A stretch of DNA of 27,135 nucleotides from Longimicrobiales bacterium (GCA_041743405.1 JBGTMU010000172.1:1-27135); one strand, 5' to 3'; positions 1,009 through 24,713 are shown, counted from the first letter of the stretch. The notes: generated from the letters alone by a model not told the origin. Translations and numbers: made by a program.

Positions 1009-3858
1009 ATGCAGAACGATCTGACCCGGTACCGGGCCGCTCTGGCCGACCGCTACGAGATCAGTCGCGAGCTGGGAACGAGTGGCTCTTCGACGGTCTA
1101 CCTGGGTCGGGAGCTTCGACACGATCGAGCCGTCGCTCTGAAGTTCATCCTTCCGACGATCGCTGGAAGCGTCGAACTGAAGCGCTTCCACCGTGAGATC
1201 CAGATCGCATCGAGGCTTCAGCACCCGAACATCCTGCCCCTTCTGGATTCGGGCGAAGTGGATGGATTGCCCTTCTTCGTGACCCCGTATGTAGAAGGTG
1301 CCAGTCTGCAGGATGTGCTGAACCGCAAGAAGACTCTTCCGGGCGACACGGTCCGCCGTATCGTCCGTGAGGTCGCAGAGGGTCTCACCTACGCCCATGC
1401 GCAGGGTGTGGTGCACCGAGATGTGAAGCCGGCAAACATCCTGCTCTCCGACGGGCACGCGATTCTGACCGACTTCGGCCTGGCGCTTCTTTCCGACAAT
1501 TCGGAGCGTCTGACGGAATCGATCAGCGGAGCCGGTGGCACCGTGCTCTACATGAGTCCCGAGCAGATGCAGGGAAGCTCGGAGCCCGATGCCCGCACGG
1601 ATGTCTACTCCCTGGCGTGCGTCGCGTACGAGATGCTCAGCGGCGAACCCCCATTCTCCGGAAGAACGGCCTGGTCGGTTCTTGCTCGTCAACAGAGCGG
1701 CCGGTTCCCCTCCCTTTCGAGCATTCGACCGGACATCCCGGCCGAAGTGGACGCGACCATCGGGAAGGCGCTGGACTTCGACCCGAGTCGGCGGTTCGCA
1801 ACCCCCCGGGCCTTTTCGGAAGCGCTCGATGCAAGCCTCGGGAAGACAGCATCCGCAGCCCCGCGAATATCGACTTCGCGGTTGATCGCCGCCGCCGTCA
1901 TGGTCGTGGTGTTCGTATCGCTGGCCGCGGTTGCGGTACTTCAGTTCGGCGGCAGTGATCCTGCACTGGATTCACAGAGCGTCATGGTGTTTCCCCTGTT
2001 TGATACCCGTGGGGAAGGCAGGAACTCGGCGGCTGGAGAGGAGGCCGCCATCATGATCGGCGCGGCCCTTGATCACGCCGGGCCGCTTCGCTGGATCGAC
2101 GGGTGGGACTGGCTGGAAGCTCCGCTCCGTTCCGACATGAGCGGCTGGACCGTGCAGCGCGGGGTGGAGATCGCTCGCAACCGAGGCTCTCGGTACCTGA
2201 TCGACGGGCGAATCATGGAGGAGGGCGACTCTACCCGAGTCCTGCTGCGTCTTCATGACGCCTCGAACGGAGAGATCGTTCGTCGCAGTCTCGTTGCGGC
2301 TCCGATGGGCGGCGAGGGCCCATCGGAGCTGGGTCGACGCGCCGTGATCGACCTCCTTCCATCCCTGATCGACGCCCGGCGGCTGGTGGGCACGGACGTG
2401 CTGACCGAGTTCGAACCTGCCGCCGTTGCGGCGTGGCTTCAGGGTGAACGCGCCTACCGCCAGTCAGACTTCGAAACCGCCCTGGACCTCTTCCAGCGCG
2501 CGGTCGGCCTCGATTCGACCATGGCGCTGGCGGCAGTCAGAGGTGCTCAGGCAGCGGGGTGGGTGCTGCGGCCTTCGATCGTGGATGCCCTGCTCACCGT
2601 CGGGCTCGAACGGGTCGAGGTCCTGCCCCTCAAGTACCGACATCTCGGAGAAGGACTCCGGAGTTACTATGCCGGGACAGGGCAGGCTGCGGTAGACCAG
2701 CTCAGGCGAGCGCTGGATCTCGATCCGACATGGAGTGACGCCCACATGGCCCTGGGCGAGGCACACTACCACCTTCTGCTGCCTGACAGCTCCGGAATCC
2801 CCGAAGCCGAGGCGGCCTTTCAGGAGGCCGTGCGGTTCGATCCGGGCTTCACCCCGGCTCTGGTTCACCTTGCCGAGCTGGCCATGGCGCGAGGAGATCA
2901 GCGGACGGCGACCGGGTTCCTCGACGAGATCCAACGCGCGGCGGGCGACGAGGTCGTGGCGGCCAGTCACCTCACTCTGATGAAGCAGTGTGCCGAGGGT
3001 GGACCGAACGACATCGACTGGCAGGGGAAGGCCACCTCCGCTCCGGCGGTTGCCCTGGAGAGCGCGCTTCGCGCCGGTGTGGGCGGTGGCCGCTCGGCCT
3101 GCGCCATCGCCGCCTTCACGGCGCTGGCCGAGACGGGACCTCCATCGTACGCCTGGGCCTCGCTTCTCGGCCGCTATTCTCATTCTCTGGCCACCGACCG
3201 GGCGGACGACGCCCGGCGCATCGTAGAGGCCGCCATCGAGTTTCCGCGACAACAGCACTACCTCGCGGTCGCCGGCACGCTGTCCGGAGCGCCGTTCTCG
3301 GACTGGGGGGAATCCGCCGTCCGCACCCTCCAGCAGGAGAGTGTCGACCCGCCGACGGCAACTCAGCTGTGGGCCGTGGGCGCTCTGCACGGTTCGAACA
3401 GCCGACCCGAGGGGACGGCGTGGGCGCTTGAAGCGGCTCGCCGCATTGCCGACACGTCTGTCGCCAGTCCGACCCACGCGCTTCTGGTCGAGGTTCTGGA
3501 AGGATGGGATGCGCTGGCCAGGGGAGACACGACCGAGGCGATCGAGCGCTTTGCCGGGCTCACCTCAGGGGACTCTCCACTCGATCTGGCCTGGGGGCTC
3601 TGGCAGTCGGTTGGGGCGGAGCGCCTGATGCTGGCACGCCTGCTGCTGGAGCGTGGGGAGTACGGTGCTGCTCTGCGCGTGGCGGGCAAGCTGGACCATC
3701 CCCAGCCCGTCATCTTTCTGGCTTACCGGCCGGAAAGTCTGCGGATCCGGGCGGATGCGGCATCAGCGCTGGGGCAGGCCAGCGTCGCCGCCGAACTGAG
3801 ACAGCGTCTCCAGAACCTTCGCGAACCCGCCACCGCAGTGACCGTCGGGTCCAACTGA
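1009..3858 (+). CDS. Hanks-type serine/threonine protein kinase, single-pass membrane protein with a large C-terminal TPR-like ectodomain
   Basis: 949 aa. Glycine-rich loop LGTSGSSTVY. Catalytic Lys in AVALKF. Catalytic loop HRDVKPANILL. DFG as TDFGLA. Activation-segment and APE-like motif GTVLYMSPEQ. One hydrophobic TM helix, LIAAAVMVVVFVSLAAVAVLQF, near residue 290. About 640 aa of helical, Ala/Leu-rich repeat sequence follow; their TPR-like character is an inference from composition and periodicity. Confidence 0.9.
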   Translation: MQNDLTRYRAALADRYEISRELGTSGSSTVYLGRELRHDRAVALKFILPTIAGSVELKRFHREIQIASRLQHPNILPLLDSGEVDGLPFFVTPYVEGASLQDVLNRKKTLPGDTVRRIVREVAEGLTYAHAQGVVHRDVKPANILLSDGHAILTDFGLALLSDNSERLTESISGAGGTVLYMSPEQMQGSSEPDARTDVYSLACVAYEMLSGEPPFSGRTAWSVLARQQSGRFPSLSSIRPDIPAEVDATIGKALDFDPSRRFATPRAFSEALDASLGKTASAAPRISTSRLIAAAVMVVVFVSLAAVAVLQFGGSDPALDSQSVMVFPLFDTRGEGRNSAAGEEAAIMIGAALDHAGPLRWIDGWDWLEAPLRSDMSGWTVQRGVEIARNRGSRYLIDGRIMEEGDSTRVLLRLHDASNGEIVRRSLVAAPMGGEGPSELGRRAVIDLLPSLIDARRLVGTDVLTEFEPAAVAAWLQGERAYRQSDFETALDLFQRAVGLDSTMALAAVRGAQAAGWVLRPSIVDALLTVGLERVEVLPLKYRHLGEGLRSYYAGTGQAAVDQLRRALDLDPTWSDAHMALGEAHYHLLLPDSSGIPEAEAAFQEAVRFDPGFTPALVHLAELAMARGDQRTATGFLDEIQRAAGDEVVAASHLTLMKQCAEGGPNDIDWQGKATSAPAVALESALRAGVGGGRSACAIAAFTALAETGPPSYAWASLLGRYSHSLATDRADDARRIVEAAIEFPRQQHYLAVAGTLSGAPFSDWGESAVRTLQQESVDPPTATQLWAVGALHGSNSRPEGTAWALEAARRIADTSVASPTHALLVEVLEGWDALARGDTTEAIERFAGLTSGDSPLDLAWGLWQSVGAERLMLARLLLERGEYGAALRVAGKLDHPQPVIFLAYRPESLRIRADAASALGQASVAAELRQRLQNLREPATAVTVGSN

Positions 3859-3872
3859 TCACCCCCCGCAAC

Positions 3873-3878
3873 GAGGAG
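3873..3878 (+). promoter_or_regulatory. Shine-Dalgarno-like GAGGAG, 8 nt upstream of the ATG at 3887
   Basis: acGAGGAGttgataccATG. Only 28 nt separate this from the kinase stop at 3858, consistent with co-transcription with the kinase. Confidence 0.5.
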
Positions 3879-3886
3879 TTGATACC

Positions 3887-4087
3887 ATGAGTCACTCAAG
3901 CGCTCACGCCCCGTCCGATCCCATTGGCCCCGGTGGACCTCCCGATGATCCCATTGGCCCCGGTGGACCTCCCGCTGATCCCATTGGTCCCGGTGGACCT
4001 CCGGCGGACCCGATTGGGCCCGGCGGCCCCCCCGCCGATCCGATCGGCCCTGGTGGTCCGCCGGCCTCGCGTCAGTCCCCGGCCTGA
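3887..4087 (+). CDS. Small Pro/Gly-rich protein of 66 aa with five tandem decapeptide repeats (DPIGPGGPPD/A)
   Basis: MSHSSAHAPS followed by 5 x DPIGPGGPP(D/A), then SRQSPA. Across the five 30-nt copies, about 18 of the 19 nucleotide differences are third-codon-position synonymous changes in this frame, and one is D to A. Both antisense frames carry non-synonymous variation. This is strong evidence that this frame is translated and conserved. A good SD lies upstream. No signal peptide. Confidence 0.6.
   Translation: MSHSSAHAPSDPIGPGGPPDDPIGPGGPPADPIGPGGPPADPIGPGGPPADPIGPGGPPASRQSPA
3917..4066 (+). repeat. 5 x 30-bp tandem repeat, in-frame within the small ORF
   Basis: Copies at 3917-3946, 3947-3976, 3977-4006, 4007-4036 and 4037-4066. 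Copies 1 and 2 are nearly identical; copies 3 to 5 diverge at wobble positions only. Confidence 0.9.
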
Positions 4088-4539
4088 GGCGTCCGGACCG
4101 ATCGCCCATCCCACATCGGGAGAGTGAAGGTGAAAAGCGGAAGAAGTATGGCGCCGACAAGCGGGTCCAACGCGGCGAAGGGCGCCCTTCCCAGTGACAC
4201 CGCCCAGACCAGGAAGCACGCCGTCGAGAGGAACAGCTGCTTTCGCCTCTCCACGCCTTCCACCCGGTACAGGTAGACGGGGGTGAGCACGAGCAGCAGT
4301 CCGAAGACCGCAGCGGGCCAGTGCCAGGTCAGACCACGACTTGCGAGGATACCGCCGATCGTGAGATAGACGGCGATCACCTCCGACGGGACATACTTGA
4401 CGAGCCGGGCCGTGTAGTCGTCAGGGGTTACGCTGGCAATCGGCGGAGCCCCGGGTGCCCCCCCCATGTCTGACATTGGAGCGGGGCCGCGACCGCGGCG
4501 AATATCCAGGTCCTGCGCGGTGATCACCTGCCGTGACAT
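4072..4539 (-). CDS. Small integral membrane protein (about 155 aa, about 4 TM helices), hypothetical
   Basis: An internal start MSRQVITAQDL... at 4539 is preferred over the ORF-track start at 4710. A GGAGG motif lies 5 nt upstream (revcomp cGGAGGcgacaATG), and the sequence between 4539 and 4710 gives a low-complexity translation. Hydrophobic helices include VIAVYLTIGGILA, AAVFGLLLVLTPVYLY, LFLSTACFLVWAVSLG and LVGAILLPLFTFTLPM. The cytoplasmic N-terminus contains GGAPGAPPIAS. The 3' end converges on the repeat ORF and overlaps it by 16 nt. Confidence 0.5.
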   Translation of the reverse strand: MSRQVITAQDLDIRRGRGPAPMSDMGGAPGAPPIASVTPDDYTARLVKYVPSEVIAVYLTIGGILASRGLTWHWPAAVFGLLLVLTPVYLYRVEGVERRKQLFLSTACFLVWAVSLGRAPFAALDPLVGAILLPLFTFTLPMWDGRSVRTPQAGD

Positions 4540-4715
4540 TGTCGCCTCCGGTCTGGGTAGTCGGCAGTCGACAAGATGACGCACGGATCGCCGAACTGCA
4601 AAGCGGTTCTCTGGAGAGTCGCCCGGGGGGGCCTCCTCCTCGCGGCCACACCGCCTGGACGGTATGCTGAGGCCAGGGTGAAGGGAGCCTGAACTCGGGG
4701 AAGGAGACACCTGGA

Positions 4716-5471
4716 ATGTCGAAGTCGCTGAAGACCTGCTTCGATCGGTATCCCGCCGATGAGCACCTGGTACGAGCTGCGGAGCTGGCGATTGCCGAGA
4801 ACGTCCGGAATGCCCCCGATCTGTCGGGTGAGTTGCCGGCTGAGGAGCTCGCCCTCGTCACCGGAAAGCTCTGGAAGAACGGCCGCAGGCTCAGAGTTGC
4901 ATTCCTGGATGGTCACGACGAGGTAAAGGCCCGCATCGAGCCGATCGCCCGGGAGTGGAGTGAGCACGCGAACATCGAATTCGACTTCGGCAACCATGCC
5001 GAGGCCGAGATCCGGATCTCGTTCGAGCTTGCGGGTTCCTGGTCCTATCTTGGAACGGACGCCCTTACGCTCGACCCCGAAGCGGCGACCATGAACTTCG
5101 GATGGCTGCGACCGGACTCCGGCGAGGCCGACTACCAGCGCGTCGTGCTGCATGAATTCGGGCATGCCCTGGCCTGCATCCACGAGCATCAGAATCCGGC
5201 AGGCGGAATTCCCTGGGATGTGGACAAGGTCTACGCCCACTACGGCGGTCCCCCTAACAACTGGCCCAAGGCGCAGGTGCACCGAAACCTCCTTCTCAGG
5301 TACGAGGAGGGGCTGACCTCGCATACCGAGTTCGATCCAGACTCGATCATGCTCTACCCGATCCCTGCGGAGCTCACCATCGGGGGCTTCGAGGTGGGCT
5401 GGAATACAGCTCTGTCGAAGACGGACCGCAAGATGATCGCGAGGATGTACCCCAAGCCGACAAGTCAGTGA
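4716..5471 (+). CDS. Astacin-like metzincin zinc metallopeptidase, with no signal peptide (predicted cytoplasmic)
   Basis: 251 aa. Extended zinc-binding motif HEFGHALACIHEH, which is HExxHxxxxxHE with astacin spacing. Met-turn SIMLYP; compare astacin SIMHY, where the Tyr two residues after the Met is the fifth zinc ligand. The N-terminus MSKSLKTCFDRYPADEHLV is not hydrophobic. A good SD (AAGGAG) lies 9 nt upstream. Confidence 0.85.
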   Translation: MSKSLKTCFDRYPADEHLVRAAELAIAENVRNAPDLSGELPAEELALVTGKLWKNGRRLRVAFLDGHDEVKARIEPIAREWSEHANIEFDFGNHAEAEIRISFELAGSWSYLGTDALTLDPEAATMNFGWLRPDSGEADYQRVVLHEFGHALACIHEHQNPAGGIPWDVDKVYAHYGGPPNNWPKAQVHRNLLLRYEEGLTSHTEFDPDSIMLYPIPAELTIGGFEVGWNTALSKTDRKMIARMYPKPTSQ

Positions 5472-7159
5472 TTGCGAACGACTTCATTGCCGAACTCAGG
5501 GCGGCTCTGGAGGCACGAGAGCACGACCGTGTTCGCGGGATGTGCCGTGGGCTGGCGGACGACCTGCGTGCCGGATCGGTGGAGGTGACCGAGAGGGACG
5601 CCGGTCGCATTCTGGCCTTCCTGAAGGCGAATCGCTGTTTCCGTGAGCTGGTGGGCGTGAGCGCTGTCATGTCGCGGACCTGGCCGGACAGTCCCCGGAT
5701 CCGAAGGCTCCATGCGCAGGGCCTCATCGAAGAAGGGCATCGATCTGACCAGCCCGAGTTGCTCGACCAGGCGCTGGACCTGCTGGAGCGCGCCGTGTCC
5801 GAGCCGGATGTGCCGCCCGATGAGCTTGACGAAGCCTGGGGTCTGATCGGTCGGGTTCACAAGCAGTTCTATGTTTCGTCGGTCCGCTCGTCCGCTGGCC
5901 CCCGGATCGAGTCGATGAATTCCGCCCTGGCGGCGTACGCCCACGGATGGGAACGGAGTCGCGAGACCTGGCACGGGATCAATCTTGTCGCCCTGCTTGC
6001 TCGCGCGCGCCGCGACGGACTGAAGCCCGAATCGCCCTGGGACGATGGCATGCTTGCCCGGGAGATTCTGGCCCGGATCGAGGAGCGCATGGACGATGGC
6101 AAGGCCGATCTCTGGGACTACGCGACCGCCATGGAGGCGTCGCTCGCGCTGGATGATGCCCCCACGGCCATCGCCATGGCGGAGACATATGTCCGCACCG
6201 GACTCGCTGCCGGCCGAGACGAGTTCGAGTTCGCATCAACTCTCCGGCAACTGAAGGAGATCTGGGAACTCGACCCCGACGGCCCGGCGGGCGCCGCCAT
6301 CCTTCCCATGCTCGAAGCCGTAGTGCTGGACCGGGGGCTGCGGAGTCCGGACGGGAGCGGTTCTGTCGCGCTCGAGTCGATGTCGGTCCACAGGATTCGG
6401 TCTGCGGAAACCTTCACGCGTCTGGAGCGTGTCTTCGGCTCGGACGCTTTCGTCACGACGCGGTGGCTGAACCTGCTCTTCGATCGTCTCCAGGCCATCG
6501 GCTCCGTGACGACCCGATCGGGGCGGGGGGTCGGCACCGGGTTCATGGTTCGGGGTCCAGTTCTTTCCACCGAGCTCGGGGACGACTGGTACTTCATCAC
6601 GAACAGCCATGTGGTTACGGACGACGAGGCCGTGATCGAGAAGGCTCCGCCCGGTCGCCAGCCATGCCGACCTCGCGAGGTCCGCATCACCTTCGAACTC
6701 CTGTTCGAACAGGAGCCGCGCGAGTACGGCGTGGCGGAGGTGATCTGGTCCTCGCCGCCGGAGGAATGCGACGTCTCCATCCTCCGGCTCGATGGCGACT
6801 TCTACGAGGACGGAGTCGAGTCCTATCCGGTCTCCTTTCAGCTTCCCCACCCGAGCACCCGACCACGGCTGTACATCGCCGGGCACCCCGGCGGGGGGAG
6901 TCTTCAGGTCTCGATGCACGACAACCATCTCATCGACTTCGATGATCTTCGGATACAGTACCGGACCCCGACCAATCCCGGGAGCTCGGGCAGTCCCGTA
7001 TTCAATGACGAGTGGGACCTGGTTGGGGTACATCACGCGGGTTCAGCCGAGATGCCTCGCCTCGATGGCTCGGGCGCGCACGAGGCGAATCAAGGTGTGC
7101 GGCTCACGGCGATTCTTGCGGCTCTGGAGCAGGTCCTGAGGGCGCGTCGGAGGGGGTAG
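5468..7159 (+). CDS. Two-domain protein: an N-terminal all-alpha TPR-like domain (about 330 aa) fused to a C-terminal trypsin-like (S1/Trypsin_2) serine protease
   Basis: 563 aa. GTG start overlaps the metzincin stop (GTGA), indicating translational coupling. C-terminal catalytic triad candidates: His in YFITNSHVV, Asp in ECDVSILRLD, Ser in TNPGSSGSPVF followed by GVHHAG. The N-terminal half is helical and Leu/Ala/Arg/Glu/Asp-rich with no TM helix or signal peptide. Its resemblance to DUF4071 or TPR-like sensor domains is an inference. Confidence 0.85.
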   Translation: MIANDFIAELRAALEAREHDRVRGMCRGLADDLRAGSVEVTERDAGRILAFLKANRCFRELVGVSAVMSRTWPDSPRIRRLHAQGLIEEGHRSDQPELLDQALDLLERAVSEPDVPPDELDEAWGLIGRVHKQFYVSSVRSSAGPRIESMNSALAAYAHGWERSRETWHGINLVALLARARRDGLKPESPWDDGMLAREILARIEERMDDGKADLWDYATAMEASLALDDAPTAIAMAETYVRTGLAAGRDEFEFASTLRQLKEIWELDPDGPAGAAILPMLEAVVLDRGLRSPDGSGSVALESMSVHRIRSAETFTRLERVFGSDAFVTTRWLNLLFDRLQAIGSVTTRSGRGVGTGFMVRGPVLSTELGDDWYFITNSHVVTDDEAVIEKAPPGRQPCRPREVRITFELLFEQEPREYGVAEVIWSSPPEECDVSILRLDGDFYEDGVESYPVSFQLPHPSTRPRLYIAGHPGGGSLQVSMHDNHLIDFDDLRIQYRTPTNPGSSGSPVFNDEWDLVGVHHAGSAEMPRLDGSGAHEANQGVRLTAILAALEQVLRARRRG

Positions 7160-11148: not shown

Positions 11149-11184
11149 CGGGGTGGAAGTATCCGGGTGGCGGAGCGAGGGAGC

Positions 11185-11246
11185 TTCGGGGGAAGGCGGG
11201 GAATTTCGGGGGAAGGCGGAGGAATTTCGGGGGGAGGTGGAGGCAT
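11185..11246 (+). repeat. Three imperfect 20/21-nt direct repeats, each carrying a GGAGG or GAAGG Shine-Dalgarno-like core, immediately upstream of the aspartic protease start
   Basis: ttcgggggaaggcggggaat / ttcgggggaaggcggaggaat / ttcggggggaggtggaggcat, followed by catg. The third unit ends 1 nt before the ATG at 11248. Confidence 0.7.
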
Positions 11247-11247
11247 C

Positions 11248-12387
11248 ATGGGTGGAGCGGCGCAGGAAATGATCAGGCGCGGATGGGCACTCGCCGCCGT
11301 GTTCCTCACCACCGCCTGCGTCTCCTACGCCGCCTCGCCCTCCCCTGAACGCGTCCGCCTCCCCGAGCTGGAGGGCCCCTACACCCTCCCATCCGAAATG
11401 TGTGGGGGCTACTTCATCGTGGACGGCTGGCTGAACGGCACCGGCCCCTGGCCTCTGCTCCTGGACTCCGGAGCCGGACGAACCGTGCTGGACCCGACGG
11501 TTCGCGAAGCAGCCGGAATCCGCTGGAGAGCCGATTCCCTCCGGATCGGAGAGTTCGAGGCGTTCCGATTCGGGGCAGGGGAGCTCGAGATGACGGCCCT
11601 CAGCTCCGCGCTCGGAAGGGAGATCGTCGGGATCCTCGGTCACCCGGTCTTCGCAGGCGTACTCATGACCTGGGACCCGAAGAACCGCGCCATTCTCCTG
11701 GAACGAGGGGAACTGGATCGGGGAATGGACGGCGTGTTCCCGGCACGGGACGATTCCCGTCCCTGGGTGGGGTCGGTGATCGGAGGGGACACGCTCTGGG
11801 TGCTCATCGACACCGGCTCTTCGAGAGGGCTCACCCTCCGGAACCCGGAACGTCTCGACTACCTGAGCCCCCTCACCCCCACCGGGGCGCGAGAGCGATT
11901 CGATGGGACCCATCTGGTCACCTCCGGACGGCTCGCCACCGACGCGCGTATCGGTCCCCTCGTCGTCGCCACCCCGGTAGTGAACAATTCGGTGAGCGTC
12001 GACCTCGTGGGACAGGAAATCCTCGAGTACGCCCGGATCACCTTCGATCAGCGAAACGACCTCATCCGGTTCGAGCGAGTGAACGGCGACCCTTCCATGC
12101 TGATTCCGAGCCCCCCGGTGCGGAGCTCGGGCTACGCGGTGCGCCCTGGCCCCTCCGGGGCGGAAGTGATCCATCTCTTCGACGGGCTTGCTCCGGAGGG
12201 AATCGAGGTCGGAGACGTGATCGTCAGCGTGAACGGCGTCCGATGGACGGAACGAGGGTGTCCGGGCGCGCGCCCATCGGATGGTGATACCCCTCCCACC
12301 GTGGAAATCCAGCGGGGCGACTCCATTTTCATCCGTACCATTCCGGTTCATATCCTGCACGGGCCACCTGGAGGGGATCGATTCTGA
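11248..12387 (+). CDS. Secreted two-lobed retropepsin-like (clan AA) aspartic protease with a C-terminal PDZ domain
   Basis: Start chosen at MGGAAQEMIRRGWALAAVFLTTACVSYAASP, a signal peptide with a Cys near the cleavage region. The ORF-track start at 11167 would add a Gly-rich stretch encoded by the upstream repeats. Two catalytic Asp motifs lie in one chain: LLLDSGAGRTVL and VLIDTGSSRGLTL. PDZ-like C-terminus GIEVGDVIVSVNGVRW. Confidence 0.75.
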   Translation: MGGAAQEMIRRGWALAAVFLTTACVSYAASPSPERVRLPELEGPYTLPSEMCGGYFIVDGWLNGTGPWPLLLDSGAGRTVLDPTVREAAGIRWRADSLRIGEFEAFRFGAGELEMTALSSALGREIVGILGHPVFAGVLMTWDPKNRAILLERGELDRGMDGVFPARDDSRPWVGSVIGGDTLWVLIDTGSSRGLTLRNPERLDYLSPLTPTGARERFDGTHLVTSGRLATDARIGPLVVATPVVNNSVSVDLVGQEILEYARITFDQRNDLIRFERVNGDPSMLIPSPPVRSSGYAVRPGPSGAEVIHLFDGLAPEGIEVGDVIVSVNGVRWTERGCPGARPSDGDTPPTVEIQRGDSIFIRTIPVHILHGPPGGDRF

Positions 12388-21860: not shown

Positions 21861-24458
21861 TCAGGCCCCTTCGTCCTTCAGCGCGATTTCGATCACTTCA
21901 TCCAGCTCCCTCACGAGGTGAATCGTGAGGGCCTCTCGCACGGGATCGGGAATATCTTCCGTATCCGCGTCGTTGTCGAAGGGGAGAATGATCTCGCAGA
22001 TCCCCGCACGGACTGCACCCAGCACCTTCTCGCGGACTCCTCCGATCGGCAGTACCTGCCCGGTGAGAGTCAGCTCCCCGGTCATGGCCAGATCCCTTCG
22101 GACCTTCCTCTTGGAGAAGGCCGAGACCAGGGCCGTGGCCATCGTGATCCCCGCGGAAGGCCCATCCTTCGGAATCGCGCCCGCCGGGACATGGATGTGC
22201 ACCTCGCACCCCTTCAGGAGCTTTTCAGGGATCCCGTACTGCTCGGCTCGGCTCTTCGCGAAGCTCCACGCGGCTCGCCCCGACTCCTTCATCACGTCAC
22301 CGAGCTGTCCAGTGAGGACGAGCCCCGCTTCCCCGGGGATCACGCTCGCCTCGACGAACATGATGTCGCCACCCATCGGCGTGTAGAACATCCCGGTGGC
22401 CACGCCCACGGCATCTTCCGTGCGCATCTTCTCGGGGTGGACCCGGGGGCGTCCGAGGAGCTCGCGCACCATTGCCGGGTCGATCGTGACCTGGTCGGCC
22501 TCCTCGCCCGCGATCCGTCGCGCCACTTTCCTTGACATCTTGCCGAGTTCGCGCTCGAGCTGACGCACCCCGGCTTCCCGCGTGTACTGGGAAATGAGCG
22601 CCGCGATCGCATCGTCCTTCACCACGAGCTCCTTCTCCTCCAGTCCCGCGTCCTTCCGCTGGCGGGGAAGCAGGTACCGCTTCGCGATCTCGAGCTTTTC
22701 CTTCTCCGTGTAGCCCGAGAAGTCGACCAGCTCCATCCGGTCGAGGAGGGGCGGTGGGATGCGGTCGACGTAGTTCGCGGTGGCGATGAAGAGCACCTCG
22801 GACAGGTCGAAGGGGATCCCCAGATAGTGATCGGTGAAGGCGTAATTCTGCGCCGGATCCAGAACCTCCAGCAGCGCCGACGAAGGGTCACCCTGGAATG
22901 AGACGCCCAGCTTGTCGACCTCATCCAGAAGGAAGACGGGGTTCTTCGTCTTCACCTGGCGCATTCCCTGAATGATCCGTCCCGGCATGGCGCCCACGTA
23001 GGTCCGCCGGTGGCCACGGATGTCGGCCTCGTCGCGCGCTCCACCCAGGGAGATCCGGACGTACTTCCGCCCGAGCGAGCGGGCGATGGACTGGGCAATC
23101 GAGGTCTTCCCGACACCTGGAGGCCCCGCAAAAAGCAGGATGGGGCCGCGTCCCTGCGAGCCGAGGTCCGGGTCTTCCGATGGGTCGACCGGTGGGGATG
23201 ATGGGGAAGCGCCCGCTTCCTCCTCGCGCTCTCCGGCGGCTGCTGTCAGGCCGCCTTCCTCATCGGATTCCTGGTCGCCTTCCTGATCGGACTCCTGGTC
23301 GGACTCGTCCGGGCTGGACGTCGACGGGCCCCCGTTTCCACTTCCATCCGCTCCTTCGGCACTCTCCCCGGCATCCCCCCCGGATCCGGACTCCACGGCT
23401 TCGGGCGCGGGATGCGCTTCATCCCACCGCTCGGTCTGAAGCTTCCGGACGGCCAGGAACTCGAGGATCCGGTCCTTCACATCTTCCAGACCATAGTGAT
23501 CCTCGTGGAGGATCTCCTGGGCCCGGGTCAGATCGATCTTGTCTTCGGTCCGTGCACTCCAGGGGAGCTCGGTGATCCATTCGAGGAAGGTACGGATGAC
23601 CTGGTATTCCGCCGACTGGGGGCTCGTGCGCTCGAGCCGCTTCAGCTCGCGCTCGACTTCCACCCGTGCGTCCTCGTCGAGTGCGAGGGCTTCGATCCGA
23701 CCCCGCAGCTCTTCCAGCTCCTTGCGGTCGTCCTCGTCCCCCAGCTCACGCTGGATCTGCTTCATCTGCTCGCGGAGGAGCATCTCCCGCTGGCGTTCGC
23801 CGAGTTCCTCCTGGACACGGGCCTGGATCTCCTCCTGGGCGTCGATCCGGGCAAGTTCGCGCTCGACCGCAACGAGGGCGCGGCGCATCCTCTCCTCATC
23901 ATCCAGCACCTCGAGAAGCTTCTGCTTGTCCGGTGTGGGAAGATCCAGGTAGAAGGCCACGAGATCCGAAAAGGAGCCGGGTTCGTCGACCCCCTGAATG
24001 AGCTGGTTCAGGGCCTCGGCCGGGACTCCCCTGCGCGTGCCCAGCTCGGCCGCCCGATCGCGGAGTTCCTTGTCGAGTGCCTGGAAGGCCGGATCGCTCA
24101 GGTTCCTCGGGGGATATCGGGTGAGTTCGATGAGGCTCGCGCGCAACATCTCGTCACCGTCACTCCGATAGTGGACGGCCTCTGCCCGATCCTCTCCCTG
24201 AACAAGAAGCTGAACCCCGCCCCGTACACGGTGCGTCTGAATCACGCGCACGATCGTTCCCACCGAGTAGAGGCCTTCGGGGGTAGCCTCGTCCACATTC
24301 TCCCGCTGCGCAACGGCGAACAGACGCCGATCGCCATCCATGGCGGCCTCGACGGCCTCGACGGTGCCGGGCCTGCCTGCCGAAATGGGCACGGCCACGC
24401 CCGGATACACGACGGTATCCCGGAGGGGAAGAACCGGAAGTGAGAAACGTTCGCTCAT
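21861..24458 (-). CDS. lon: ATP-dependent Lon protease (LonA) with a large acidic low-complexity insertion ahead of the AAA+ module
   Basis: Start chosen at MSERFSLPVLPLRDTVVYPG, the typical Lon N-terminus, with AGAGGA 4 nt upstream. The ORF-track start at 24500 adds 14 aa. Walker A GPPGVGKTS. Protease active-site DGPSAG and the Lys region. Insertion EAHPAPEAVESGSGGDAGESAEGADGSGNGGPSTSSPDESDQESDQEGDQESDEEGG...PSEDPDLGSQGR lies between the N-terminal/coiled-coil region and Walker A. Confidence 0.95.
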   Translation of the reverse strand: MSERFSLPVLPLRDTVVYPGVAVPISAGRPGTVEAVEAAMDGDRRLFAVAQRENVDEATPEGLYSVGTIVRVIQTHRVRGGVQLLVQGEDRAEAVHYRSDGDEMLRASLIELTRYPPRNLSDPAFQALDKELRDRAAELGTRRGVPAEALNQLIQGVDEPGSFSDLVAFYLDLPTPDKQKLLEVLDDEERMRRALVAVERELARIDAQEEIQARVQEELGERQREMLLREQMKQIQRELGDEDDRKELEELRGRIEALALDEDARVEVERELKRLERTSPQSAEYQVIRTFLEWITELPWSARTEDKIDLTRAQEILHEDHYGLEDVKDRILEFLAVRKLQTERWDEAHPAPEAVESGSGGDAGESAEGADGSGNGGPSTSSPDESDQESDQEGDQESDEEGGLTAAAGEREEEAGASPSSPPVDPSEDPDLGSQGRGPILLFAGPPGVGKTSIAQSIARSLGRKYVRISLGGARDEADIRGHRRTYVGAMPGRIIQGMRQVKTKNPVFLLDEVDKLGVSFQGDPSSALLEVLDPAQNYAFTDHYLGIPFDLSEVLFIATANYVDRIPPPLLDRMELVDFSGYTEKEKLEIAKRYLLPRQRKDAGLEEKELVVKDDAIAALISQYTREAGVRQLERELGKMSRKVARRIAGEEADQVTIDPAMVRELLGRPRVHPEKMRTEDAVGVATGMFYTPMGGDIMFVEASVIPGEAGLVLTGQLGDVMKESGRAAWSFAKSRAEQYGIPEKLLKGCEVHIHVPAGAIPKDGPSAGITMATALVSAFSKRKVRRDLAMTGELTLTGQVLPIGGVREKVLGAVRAGICEIILPFDNDADTEDIPDPVREALTIHLVRELDEVIEIALKDEGA

Positions 24459-24713
24459 GCATCCTCTGCTGTGGAGCGGGGCCTCCGCGAGGAGTTCCAC
24501 GCTCCCTGTGTTCGATTCGCACCCCGGATTTCCGCGGATCGGCCCGGGGACCTCCTGCTCACTGCATGAATCCTGCCACGCAGGGTGCTCCCGAAGCGTG
24601 CCGCTCCGGCGGGAGTACTGTCAAAATGGCTCCAGCACGGTACCACTTTCTCGGCACGGGGGGTCCGAATAGCTTGAGGGGGCCGTCGGCATCCCTTCTC
24701 CCCTTCCCCAGCC

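Follow-up and report, generated by a model that had tools for sequence, protein, structure and literature searches.

Known multi-core precursor peptides include the cyanobactin PatE-type and yeast alpha-factor-type polyprotein precursors, and known elastomeric GPGGX/beta-turn repeat proteins include spider flagelliform silk and elastin-like polypeptides. To our knowledge, the substrates or triggers of intracellular protease/TPR modules of the kind described below are essentially unknown. Among conflict systems, the 'peptide-processing systems' combine a zincin peptidase with a small, rapidly diverging precursor (e.g. FxSxx-COOH) and a TPR-bearing effector (Kaur et al., 2020, PMC7159879). Myroilysin, in turn, is an elastase that cuts the Gly/Pro/Val/Ala-rich repeats of elastin, with Gly the commonest residue at P1 (PMC4377995). 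We compare with these a small repeat-encoding gene from the window, by which we mean the whole 27,135-nt stretch of DNA analyzed (66% GC).

The small gene occupies 3887..4087 on the plus strand, from an ATG start to a TGA stop, and its 66 codons translate to MSHSSAHAPS, one DPIGPGGPPD, four copies of DPIGPGGPPA and a terminal SRQSPA. The array of five 30-nt units encoding DPIGPGGPP[D/A] spans 3917..4066(+), with units starting at 3917, 3947, 3977, 4007 and 4037, and was found using Tandem Repeats Finder (period 30, 4.7 copies). The translation and unit positions bear out the first-pass annotation, which had proposed a 66-aa ORF with five tandem decapeptides at this place, and its description of the surroundings was equally accurate: the stop codon of the upstream kinase gene lies at 3856..3858, leaving a gap of 28 nt to the ATG, and the 'good' Shine-Dalgarno site can be read as GAGGAG at 3873..3878(+), 8 nt ahead of the start. 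Similar GGAG-type motifs also stand upstream of other window genes. A hydrophobic core is missing from the N-terminal MSHSSAHAPSDP, so that a signal peptide is not evident, again as annotated, and the repeat unit contains no Ser, Thr, Tyr, Cys, Lys or Arg. A single-sequence AlphaFold2 model (pLDDT 58, zero secondary structure) is compatible with disorder, yet uninformative. We rejected a structured RNA or terminator as an explanation for the region, which folded no better than shuffled sequence (z -0.99), matched no Rfam family and presented no promoter-like or terminator-like sites, including within the gap between the kinase and the small gene. The small gene closes the transcription unit of the kinase on its 3' side and is probably co-transcribed with the kinase.

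The upstream gene (1009..3858(+)) encodes a Ser/Thr protein kinase with one transmembrane segment and a TPR-containing C-terminal region (Pfam Pkinase 2e-48 plus TPR matches). The kinase, apparently active, shows HRD and DFG motifs as well as the transmembrane segment in its translation; its TPR region is probably extracytoplasmic because it lies beyond the transmembrane segment. On the other side, a convergent gene (4072..4539(-)) encodes a 155-aa membrane protein (identical to P0001), and the last 16 nt of this gene (4072-4087) overlap the 3' end of the small gene. The membrane protein has three helices and conserved KxxPSEVI and TPVYL motifs, and found no family in Pfam, NCBIfam or PADLOC. 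Diverging from the membrane gene, 4716..5471(+) encodes a myroilysin-like astacin (M12A) metallopeptidase of 251 aa without a signal peptide, carrying the motifs HEFGHALACIHEH and SIMLY and sharing 50%-class identity with myroilysin (PDB 5gwd/5zjk/5czw, E about 3e-56); what had been annotated as a downstream 'metzincin' is therefore a close homologue of that elastase. The astacin gene is overlapped by 4 nt by 5468..7159(+), which encodes a fusion of a TPR-S sensor domain and a trypsin-like serine peptidase, also without a signal peptide (Pfam TPR-S 1.9e-12, Trypsin_2 9e-16). The characterized bacterial astacins that we know of are secreted, and the coupling of a seemingly cytoplasmic astacin to a sensor-protease (4716-7159) is unusual in this respect. 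The membrane gene adjoins a peptidase gene in every lineage seen, be it astacin-like (window, L081, L082/L110), Peptidase_S8 (L083-L088) or trypsin-like (L109), and the membrane protein may serve specifically as a partner to peptidases, intracellular or exported.

Comparison of the five repeat units with one another points to selection on the encoded peptide. The units vary at 11 columns, ten of them at codon position 3 and one at position 2; all wobble positions of the unit are variable, and the single position-2 change produces the Ala/Asp difference at unit residue 10. For at least 10 of 11 variable columns to coincide with the unit's 10 third positions, the hypergeometric probability is 20/C(30,11), or ~3.7e-7. 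Pairwise, the units differ 61 times, distributed 0/4/57 over the three codon positions. The earlier figure of about 18 differing positions was therefore loose, but its accompanying statement that all but one of the variable positions are synonymous third-codon changes holds for 10 of the 11 columns. A codon-aware comparison, which the same annotation had proposed, produced an excess of synonymous change between copies (Nei-Gojobori, sense frame, 56.5 synonymous versus 4.5 non-synonymous changes over all pairs) and of third-position change against a related genome, described below. Synonymous divergence is saturated among units 3, 4 and 5 (pS 0.78-0.89) and lower among units 1-3 (0-0.33), indicating that the array holds both old and recently duplicated units. 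We consider it highly probable from these counts that the amino-acid sequence of each unit is under selection, with synonymous sites saturated. Codon usage in the array falls below the genome norm (z -3.3; GC3 0.58 compared to ~0.78 in window genes), a point that counts against a coding gene and that may stem from weak expression, a foreign source or pressure for DNA-level dissimilarity of the units. Units 1-3 have the rare codons GAT, ATT, GGT, GGA and CCT in common.

We then turned to relatives, using the membrane protein, which has four homologues (P0002-P0005), as a guide. The locus of P0002 (82% identity), L081, is collinear with window 4037..7146 at 75% nt identity, and its contig ends within the array; on the small-gene strand it terminates in ...PPDDPIGPGGPLADPLFPA-TGA. 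The window and L081 have 13 repeat codons in common, in which differences are distributed 0/2/9 by codon position (9 of 11 at the third, P about 1e-4), and the two ORFs run for an equal number of codons to a common CCGGCCTGA end. In a more distant lineage of 54% identity, L110 (with P0044) ends in DPAGPGSPPA-TGA, and L082, which belongs to this lineage as well, has a contig that stops two bases beyond the TGA of the small gene. The orthologue stretches seen are 3' ends of the small gene, 60 nt in L081 and 33 nt in L110, and as far as these can be read three lineages have kept the peptide unit together with its stop codon, while the C-termini are SRQSPA in the window, DPLFPA in L081 and PPA in L110. 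In at least three lineages the small gene is convergent to the same membrane gene and stands beside the same astacin-like protease; the membrane and astacin genes are kept in both L081 and L110, each of which shows the 3' end of the small ORF, and L082 has the same two genes. Homologues of the astacin share 85% (L081) and 63% (L082) identity with the window enzyme, and the TPR-S/trypsin homologue in L081 shares 77%. No downstream Pro/Gly-repeat ORF accompanies the closest full-length kinase homologues found in genomes (44-46% identity, Gemmatimonadota MAGs L001 and L002), and no Pro/Gly-rich ORF adjoins the distant membrane-protein homologues (≤47% identity) at 21 metagenome loci, so that the small-gene family seems to be confined to a narrow clade. 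The contigs of two relatives break off within the array, an indication that short-read assembly truncates the small gene and conceals more cases of it.

The third-position pattern has a near counterpart on the opposite strand, and this has to be weighed before the sense ORF is accepted. The antisense frame that shares its wobble positions with the sense frame reads (AGGPPGP[I/M]GS)x5 with 51 synonymous versus 10 non-synonymous pairwise changes, and its codon usage (z -3.0), like that of the sense frame, is significantly below the genome norm. Because this frame is almost equally conserved, periodicity alone cannot identify the strand; nor can codon usage alone, and comparative data are required. 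The frame is also in frame with the membrane gene at 4072..4539(-), behind a single TGA, so that the repeat could be taken for additional C-terminal sequence that the membrane protein gains when the TGA is read through or decoded as selenocysteine, or for a recently truncated, pseudogenized tail. The relatives speak against such a tail: its offset relative to the membrane gene is 0 in the window (TGA), +1 in L081 (TAA) and +2 in L110 (TAA), the spacing between the stops of the small gene and the membrane gene shifts from -16 nt in the window to 0 in L081 and +37 nt in L110, and all five members of the membrane-protein family end in alignment near ...WDGxx, without a Pro/Gly tail. In addition, the first start codon in that frame does not occur before unit 3, and this antisense reading entails Met/Ile as well as Ala/Ser replacements, against Ala/Asp alone in the sense frame. 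Since the unit and stop are kept in L081 and L110, the antisense offsets vary and the membrane-protein family has no such tail, the sense ORF is favored as the real gene, and on these alignments an antisense extension appears largely refuted and retains hardly any credibility. A 1-nt indel in the final codons of the membrane gene explains the longer SVRTPQAGD tail of the window protein. The first-pass annotation's argument against antisense ORFs therefore stands for the two long ones, 3723..4160 (145 aa) and 3896..4219 (107 aa), in which the variable bases fall at codon positions 1/2 and the repeats are scrambled, and fails for the wobble-sharing frame, which needed the comparative data. It had further named equal antisense conservation of the repeat as grounds for refutation; the repeat comes near to this (51/10), yet the offsets of 0, +1 and +2 in three lineages reject that frame. 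We also rejected a +2-frame ORF of 67 aa with high GC3, where the variable bases again fall at codon positions 1/2, on account of its scrambled repeat, which is likewise scrambled in each of the four frames beyond the sense and wobble-sharing antisense frames, and a kinase frameshift or read-through into the repeat, because the kinase frame stops again within 8 codons and kinase homologues end alike. A non-coding tandem repeat (VNTR) or spurious ORF with a fortuitous third-position pattern would account for the silence of gene callers, the atypical codon usage and the failure to find a homologous protein family. It is very improbable given the positional pattern within the array (P about 4e-7), the third-position excess between genomes over 13 codons, and the retention of the stop codon and unit at 75% overall nt identity and beyond, and the earlier conclusions that this is not a non-coding VNTR and that the peptide is under purifying selection are both upheld by the combination of between-copy counts and conservation in L081 and L110. 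We thus have good confidence, on comparative grounds, that 3887..4087(+) is a real translated gene under purifying selection.

This gene has gone unrecorded. Although the kinase, membrane protein and metallopeptidase of the same contig are all present in a 15-billion-protein collection (NCBI and Logan), the exact 66-aa sequence is absent from it, and no gene caller reported the small gene. A word-indexed homology search of that collection with the 66-aa query returned no protein sharing even three 5-residue words, and Pfam (E up to 1), NCBIfam and PADLOC returned no match for the small protein. An exhaustive phmmer search of 1.84 billion representatives generated 38 matches, which with the exception of P0023 were Pro/Gly repeats of low complexity, in proteins that are unrelated and for the most part spurious or eukaryote-like; another match, P0026, was set aside because of its unrelated genomic context. 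Degenerate codon-level DNA patterns covering two adjacent units matched 0 viral contigs and 0 JGI metagenome contigs, and a literature search for PIGPGG found no match. The statement that no described family is recognizable is thus confirmed for Pfam, NCBIfam and PADLOC, and the search for homologues and their genomic partners that had been suggested alongside it, carried out by phmmer, word indexing and DNA patterns, yielded no convincing homologue, the partners being visible in L081 and L110. We regard the small gene as encoding a small peptidase- and TPR-associated orphan protein, a functional assignment that we infer, and it adds a well-supported case of a conserved microprotein gene overlooked by standard annotation.

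What the protein does is a more tentative matter. Synonymous divergence is saturated and the flanking sequences change (SRQSPA, DPLFPA, none), but the decapeptide stays constant at every residue, which makes the unit look specifically recognized instead of a generic spacer. Taken with the specificity of myroilysin and the recurrent theme of zincin, precursor and TPR protein, this constancy leads us to favor a multi-copy substrate, precursor or decoy. The conserved decapeptide would be a sequence-specific recognition unit, offered in multiple copies to the adjacent intracellular protease/TPR module, which would comprise the myroilysin-like metallopeptidase and the TPR-S/trypsin-like peptidase. 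The small protein might act as a polyprotein-like substrate or precursor that is cut to decapeptide units or, alternatively, as a multivalent decoy or ligand filling a protease cleft or the TPR-S sensor, with its supply set by the kinase operon. It can be counted for a protease link that the astacin, the TPR-S/trypsin protein and the small protein all lack signal peptides, that the membrane and astacin genes next to the small gene's 3' end are kept in L081 and L110, and that the idea of a protease substrate or ligand, already raised in the first-pass annotation, gains circumstantially from the neighboring metzincin being a close myroilysin homologue. Counting against it, the cleavage preferences of myroilysin were measured on a secreted, elastin-degrading enzyme and not on the window's astacin, the small gene belongs to the kinase unit and not to the protease operon, with a convergent gene lying between it and the proteases, and loci with a distant membrane protein (≤47% identity) do not have the small ORF. 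We hold the whole explanation, a real small gene that provides a recognition unit for the protease/TPR module, as a plausible but tentative proposal; functional coupling of the small protein to its protease and TPR neighbors is possible though somewhat doubtful, and actual cleavage into decapeptide units is quite unlikely.

A free-standing structural microprotein is the main competitor to recognition by the proteases. The small protein could be elastomeric, of PPII type or condensate-forming, acting alone or with the cytoplasmic domain of the kinase, in which case its proximity to the proteases would be accidental. It probably shares the kinase transcript (28-nt gap, no terminator-like site), its AlphaFold2 model is of low confidence and without secondary structure, and phmmer matches show that PxGPGG ten-residue repeats recur among unrelated proteins from many sources, suggesting a generic structural propensity. 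However, strict conservation of each residue would be unusual in a purely physical disordered spacer, the repeat lacks the Ser, Thr and Tyr residues that the kinase could phosphorylate, the TPR region of the kinase lies past the transmembrane segment and so is probably outside the cell, and the conserved synteny actually seen is with the membrane-protein/astacin pair; we judge a purely structural role unlikely. Translation itself might instead be what matters. XPPX motifs stall ribosomes, and the five GPP(A/D) motifs in 66 codons, together with rare codons, the operon-terminal (3') position and the overlap with a convergent gene, would fit an EF-P-dependent stalling cistron that tunes kinase mRNA stability or expression or disturbs the convergent transcript. 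All ten unit residues are conserved, though, and not the PP motif alone; no cistron follows on the same strand and transcript, the next gene being the convergent 4072..4539(-); and the analogue in L111 (GPGGNAADPL, see below) shows the same selection pattern without a PP motif, so that we consider a stalling role very unlikely. If the favored coupling of small protein and protease/TPR module is true, the locus would offer a simple test system, pairing a defined 10-residue peptide with a cytoplasmic myroilysin-like astacin and a TPR-S/trypsin protein; if it is wrong, a tidy but minor orphan repeat microprotein remains.

The exceptional phmmer match, P0023, comes from L111, an unrelated single short contig of 59% GC on which a TPR protein (3-956), P0023 (1034-1408) and a peptidase-like gene (1410-1520) follow one another. 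P0023 is a 124-aa protein containing GPGGNAADPL x3, in which a DPLGPGG core can be read, and 22 of the 22 nucleotide differences between its units fall at codon position 3. The gene that begins 2 nt past its stop has a weak Peptidase_C70 (papain-like) match, below the Pfam threshold. P0023 and the window gene are alike in their ten-residue period, in their DP[IL]GPGG core and in the pattern of selection, differences between P0023 units being synonymous only, and P0023 stands directly after a TPR protein and directly before a peptidase-like gene. In contrast to the window protein, P0023 has non-repeat N- and C-terminal regions, its peptidase neighbor is papain-like (weak C70) and not astacin- or trypsin-like, and its genome has 59% GC. 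The L111 arrangement of TPR protein, DPLGPGG-repeat small protein and peptidase offers circumstantial backing for the protease/TPR model, and its repeat may be convergent rather than homologous. As a speculation that we think improbable as it stands, DP[IL]GPGG tandem-decapeptide microproteins could form an unrecognized class of multi-copy peptide ligands or precursors for TPR sensors and intracellular peptidases (astacin-, trypsin- or papain-like) in bacterial signaling or conflict modules, recurring both in the window's clade and in the unrelated L111 and missed by gene callers and by assemblies broken inside arrays.

Other features were seen in the window and its relatives. A 21-nt tandem repeat (2.9 copies) at 11185-11243 encodes a Gly-rich N-terminal stretch (GGRRGISGEGGGISGGGGGIMGG) of the ORF 11167..12387, which has an Asp_protease_2 match and a weak PDZ match, and a 24-nt repeat at 23252-23301(-) lies in a Lon protease gene (21861..24500), where it encodes an acidic low-complexity insert (DESDQESDQEGDQESDEE). 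A few kb downstream of the kinase homologue in L001, the closest that is full length, lies a 530-aa ORF (L001:7553-9145) whose end by eye resembles a TIR domain (FLSYASEDRPEVEKL...), which hints at a defense-type neighborhood.

Set beside the systems from which we began, the locus resembles the peptide-processing systems of Kaur et al. (2020) in placing a small orphan protein near a zincin-type metallopeptidase and TPR proteins, and in conserving a short motif while its flanks diverge. The small gene lies 630 nt from the astacin-like zincin and the pair is kept in three lineages, with a convergent gene between them and separate operons. The small-protein C-termini SRQSPA, DPLFPA and PPA have no FxSxx, RxD, acidic or FtsH-associated motif; Pfam scans of window ORFs identified no vWA, MoxR, FtsH, AP-ATPase or radical-SAM domain, the TPR links being those of the kinase-TPR and TPR-S-trypsin proteins only; and the window element is a five-fold decapeptide and not a single C-terminal peptide, its peptidase being astacin-like. 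Compared to myroilysin, the M12A elastase of Myroides profundi, the window peptidase is a clear homologue, and the small protein resembles its VPGVG-type, Gly/Pro/Ala/Val-rich substrate in composition. Myroilysin is secreted and degrades foreign elastin, whereas the window enzyme and its candidate substrate have no signal peptides and are encoded at one locus. Like the GPGGX elastomers, the small protein has a GPGG core, high Pro and Gly content, short tandem units and no predicted regular secondary structure; it differs in its period of ten rather than five, its length of 66 aa and its intracellular location, and no homology connects them, phmmer matches being low-complexity only. The collagen-like scaffold suggested in the first-pass annotation did not survive, because Gly does not occupy every third residue: Gly at positions 4, 6 and 7 of the ten-residue unit breaks the (Gly-X-Y)n register on either strand, and there is no Pfam Collagen match. 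Pentapeptide-repeat and other curated repeat families were likewise rejected (no Pfam match at E up to 1, no NCBIfam or PADLOC match).

With multi-core precursors, the small protein shares identical short units within one small protein, conserved units amid drifting flanks and proteases encoded nearby. It differs from them in having no recognizable leader, recognition sequences or export signal and a unit without Cys, Ser or Thr, and the window contains no YcaO, radical-SAM, lanthionine-synthetase or PatA/PatG-type genes, the kinase's LanL/LanKC matches lying far below cut-off. Thus, although the small protein does not have the defining motifs and gene content of either the peptide-processing systems or the multi-core RiPP precursors, it may work in a similar way.
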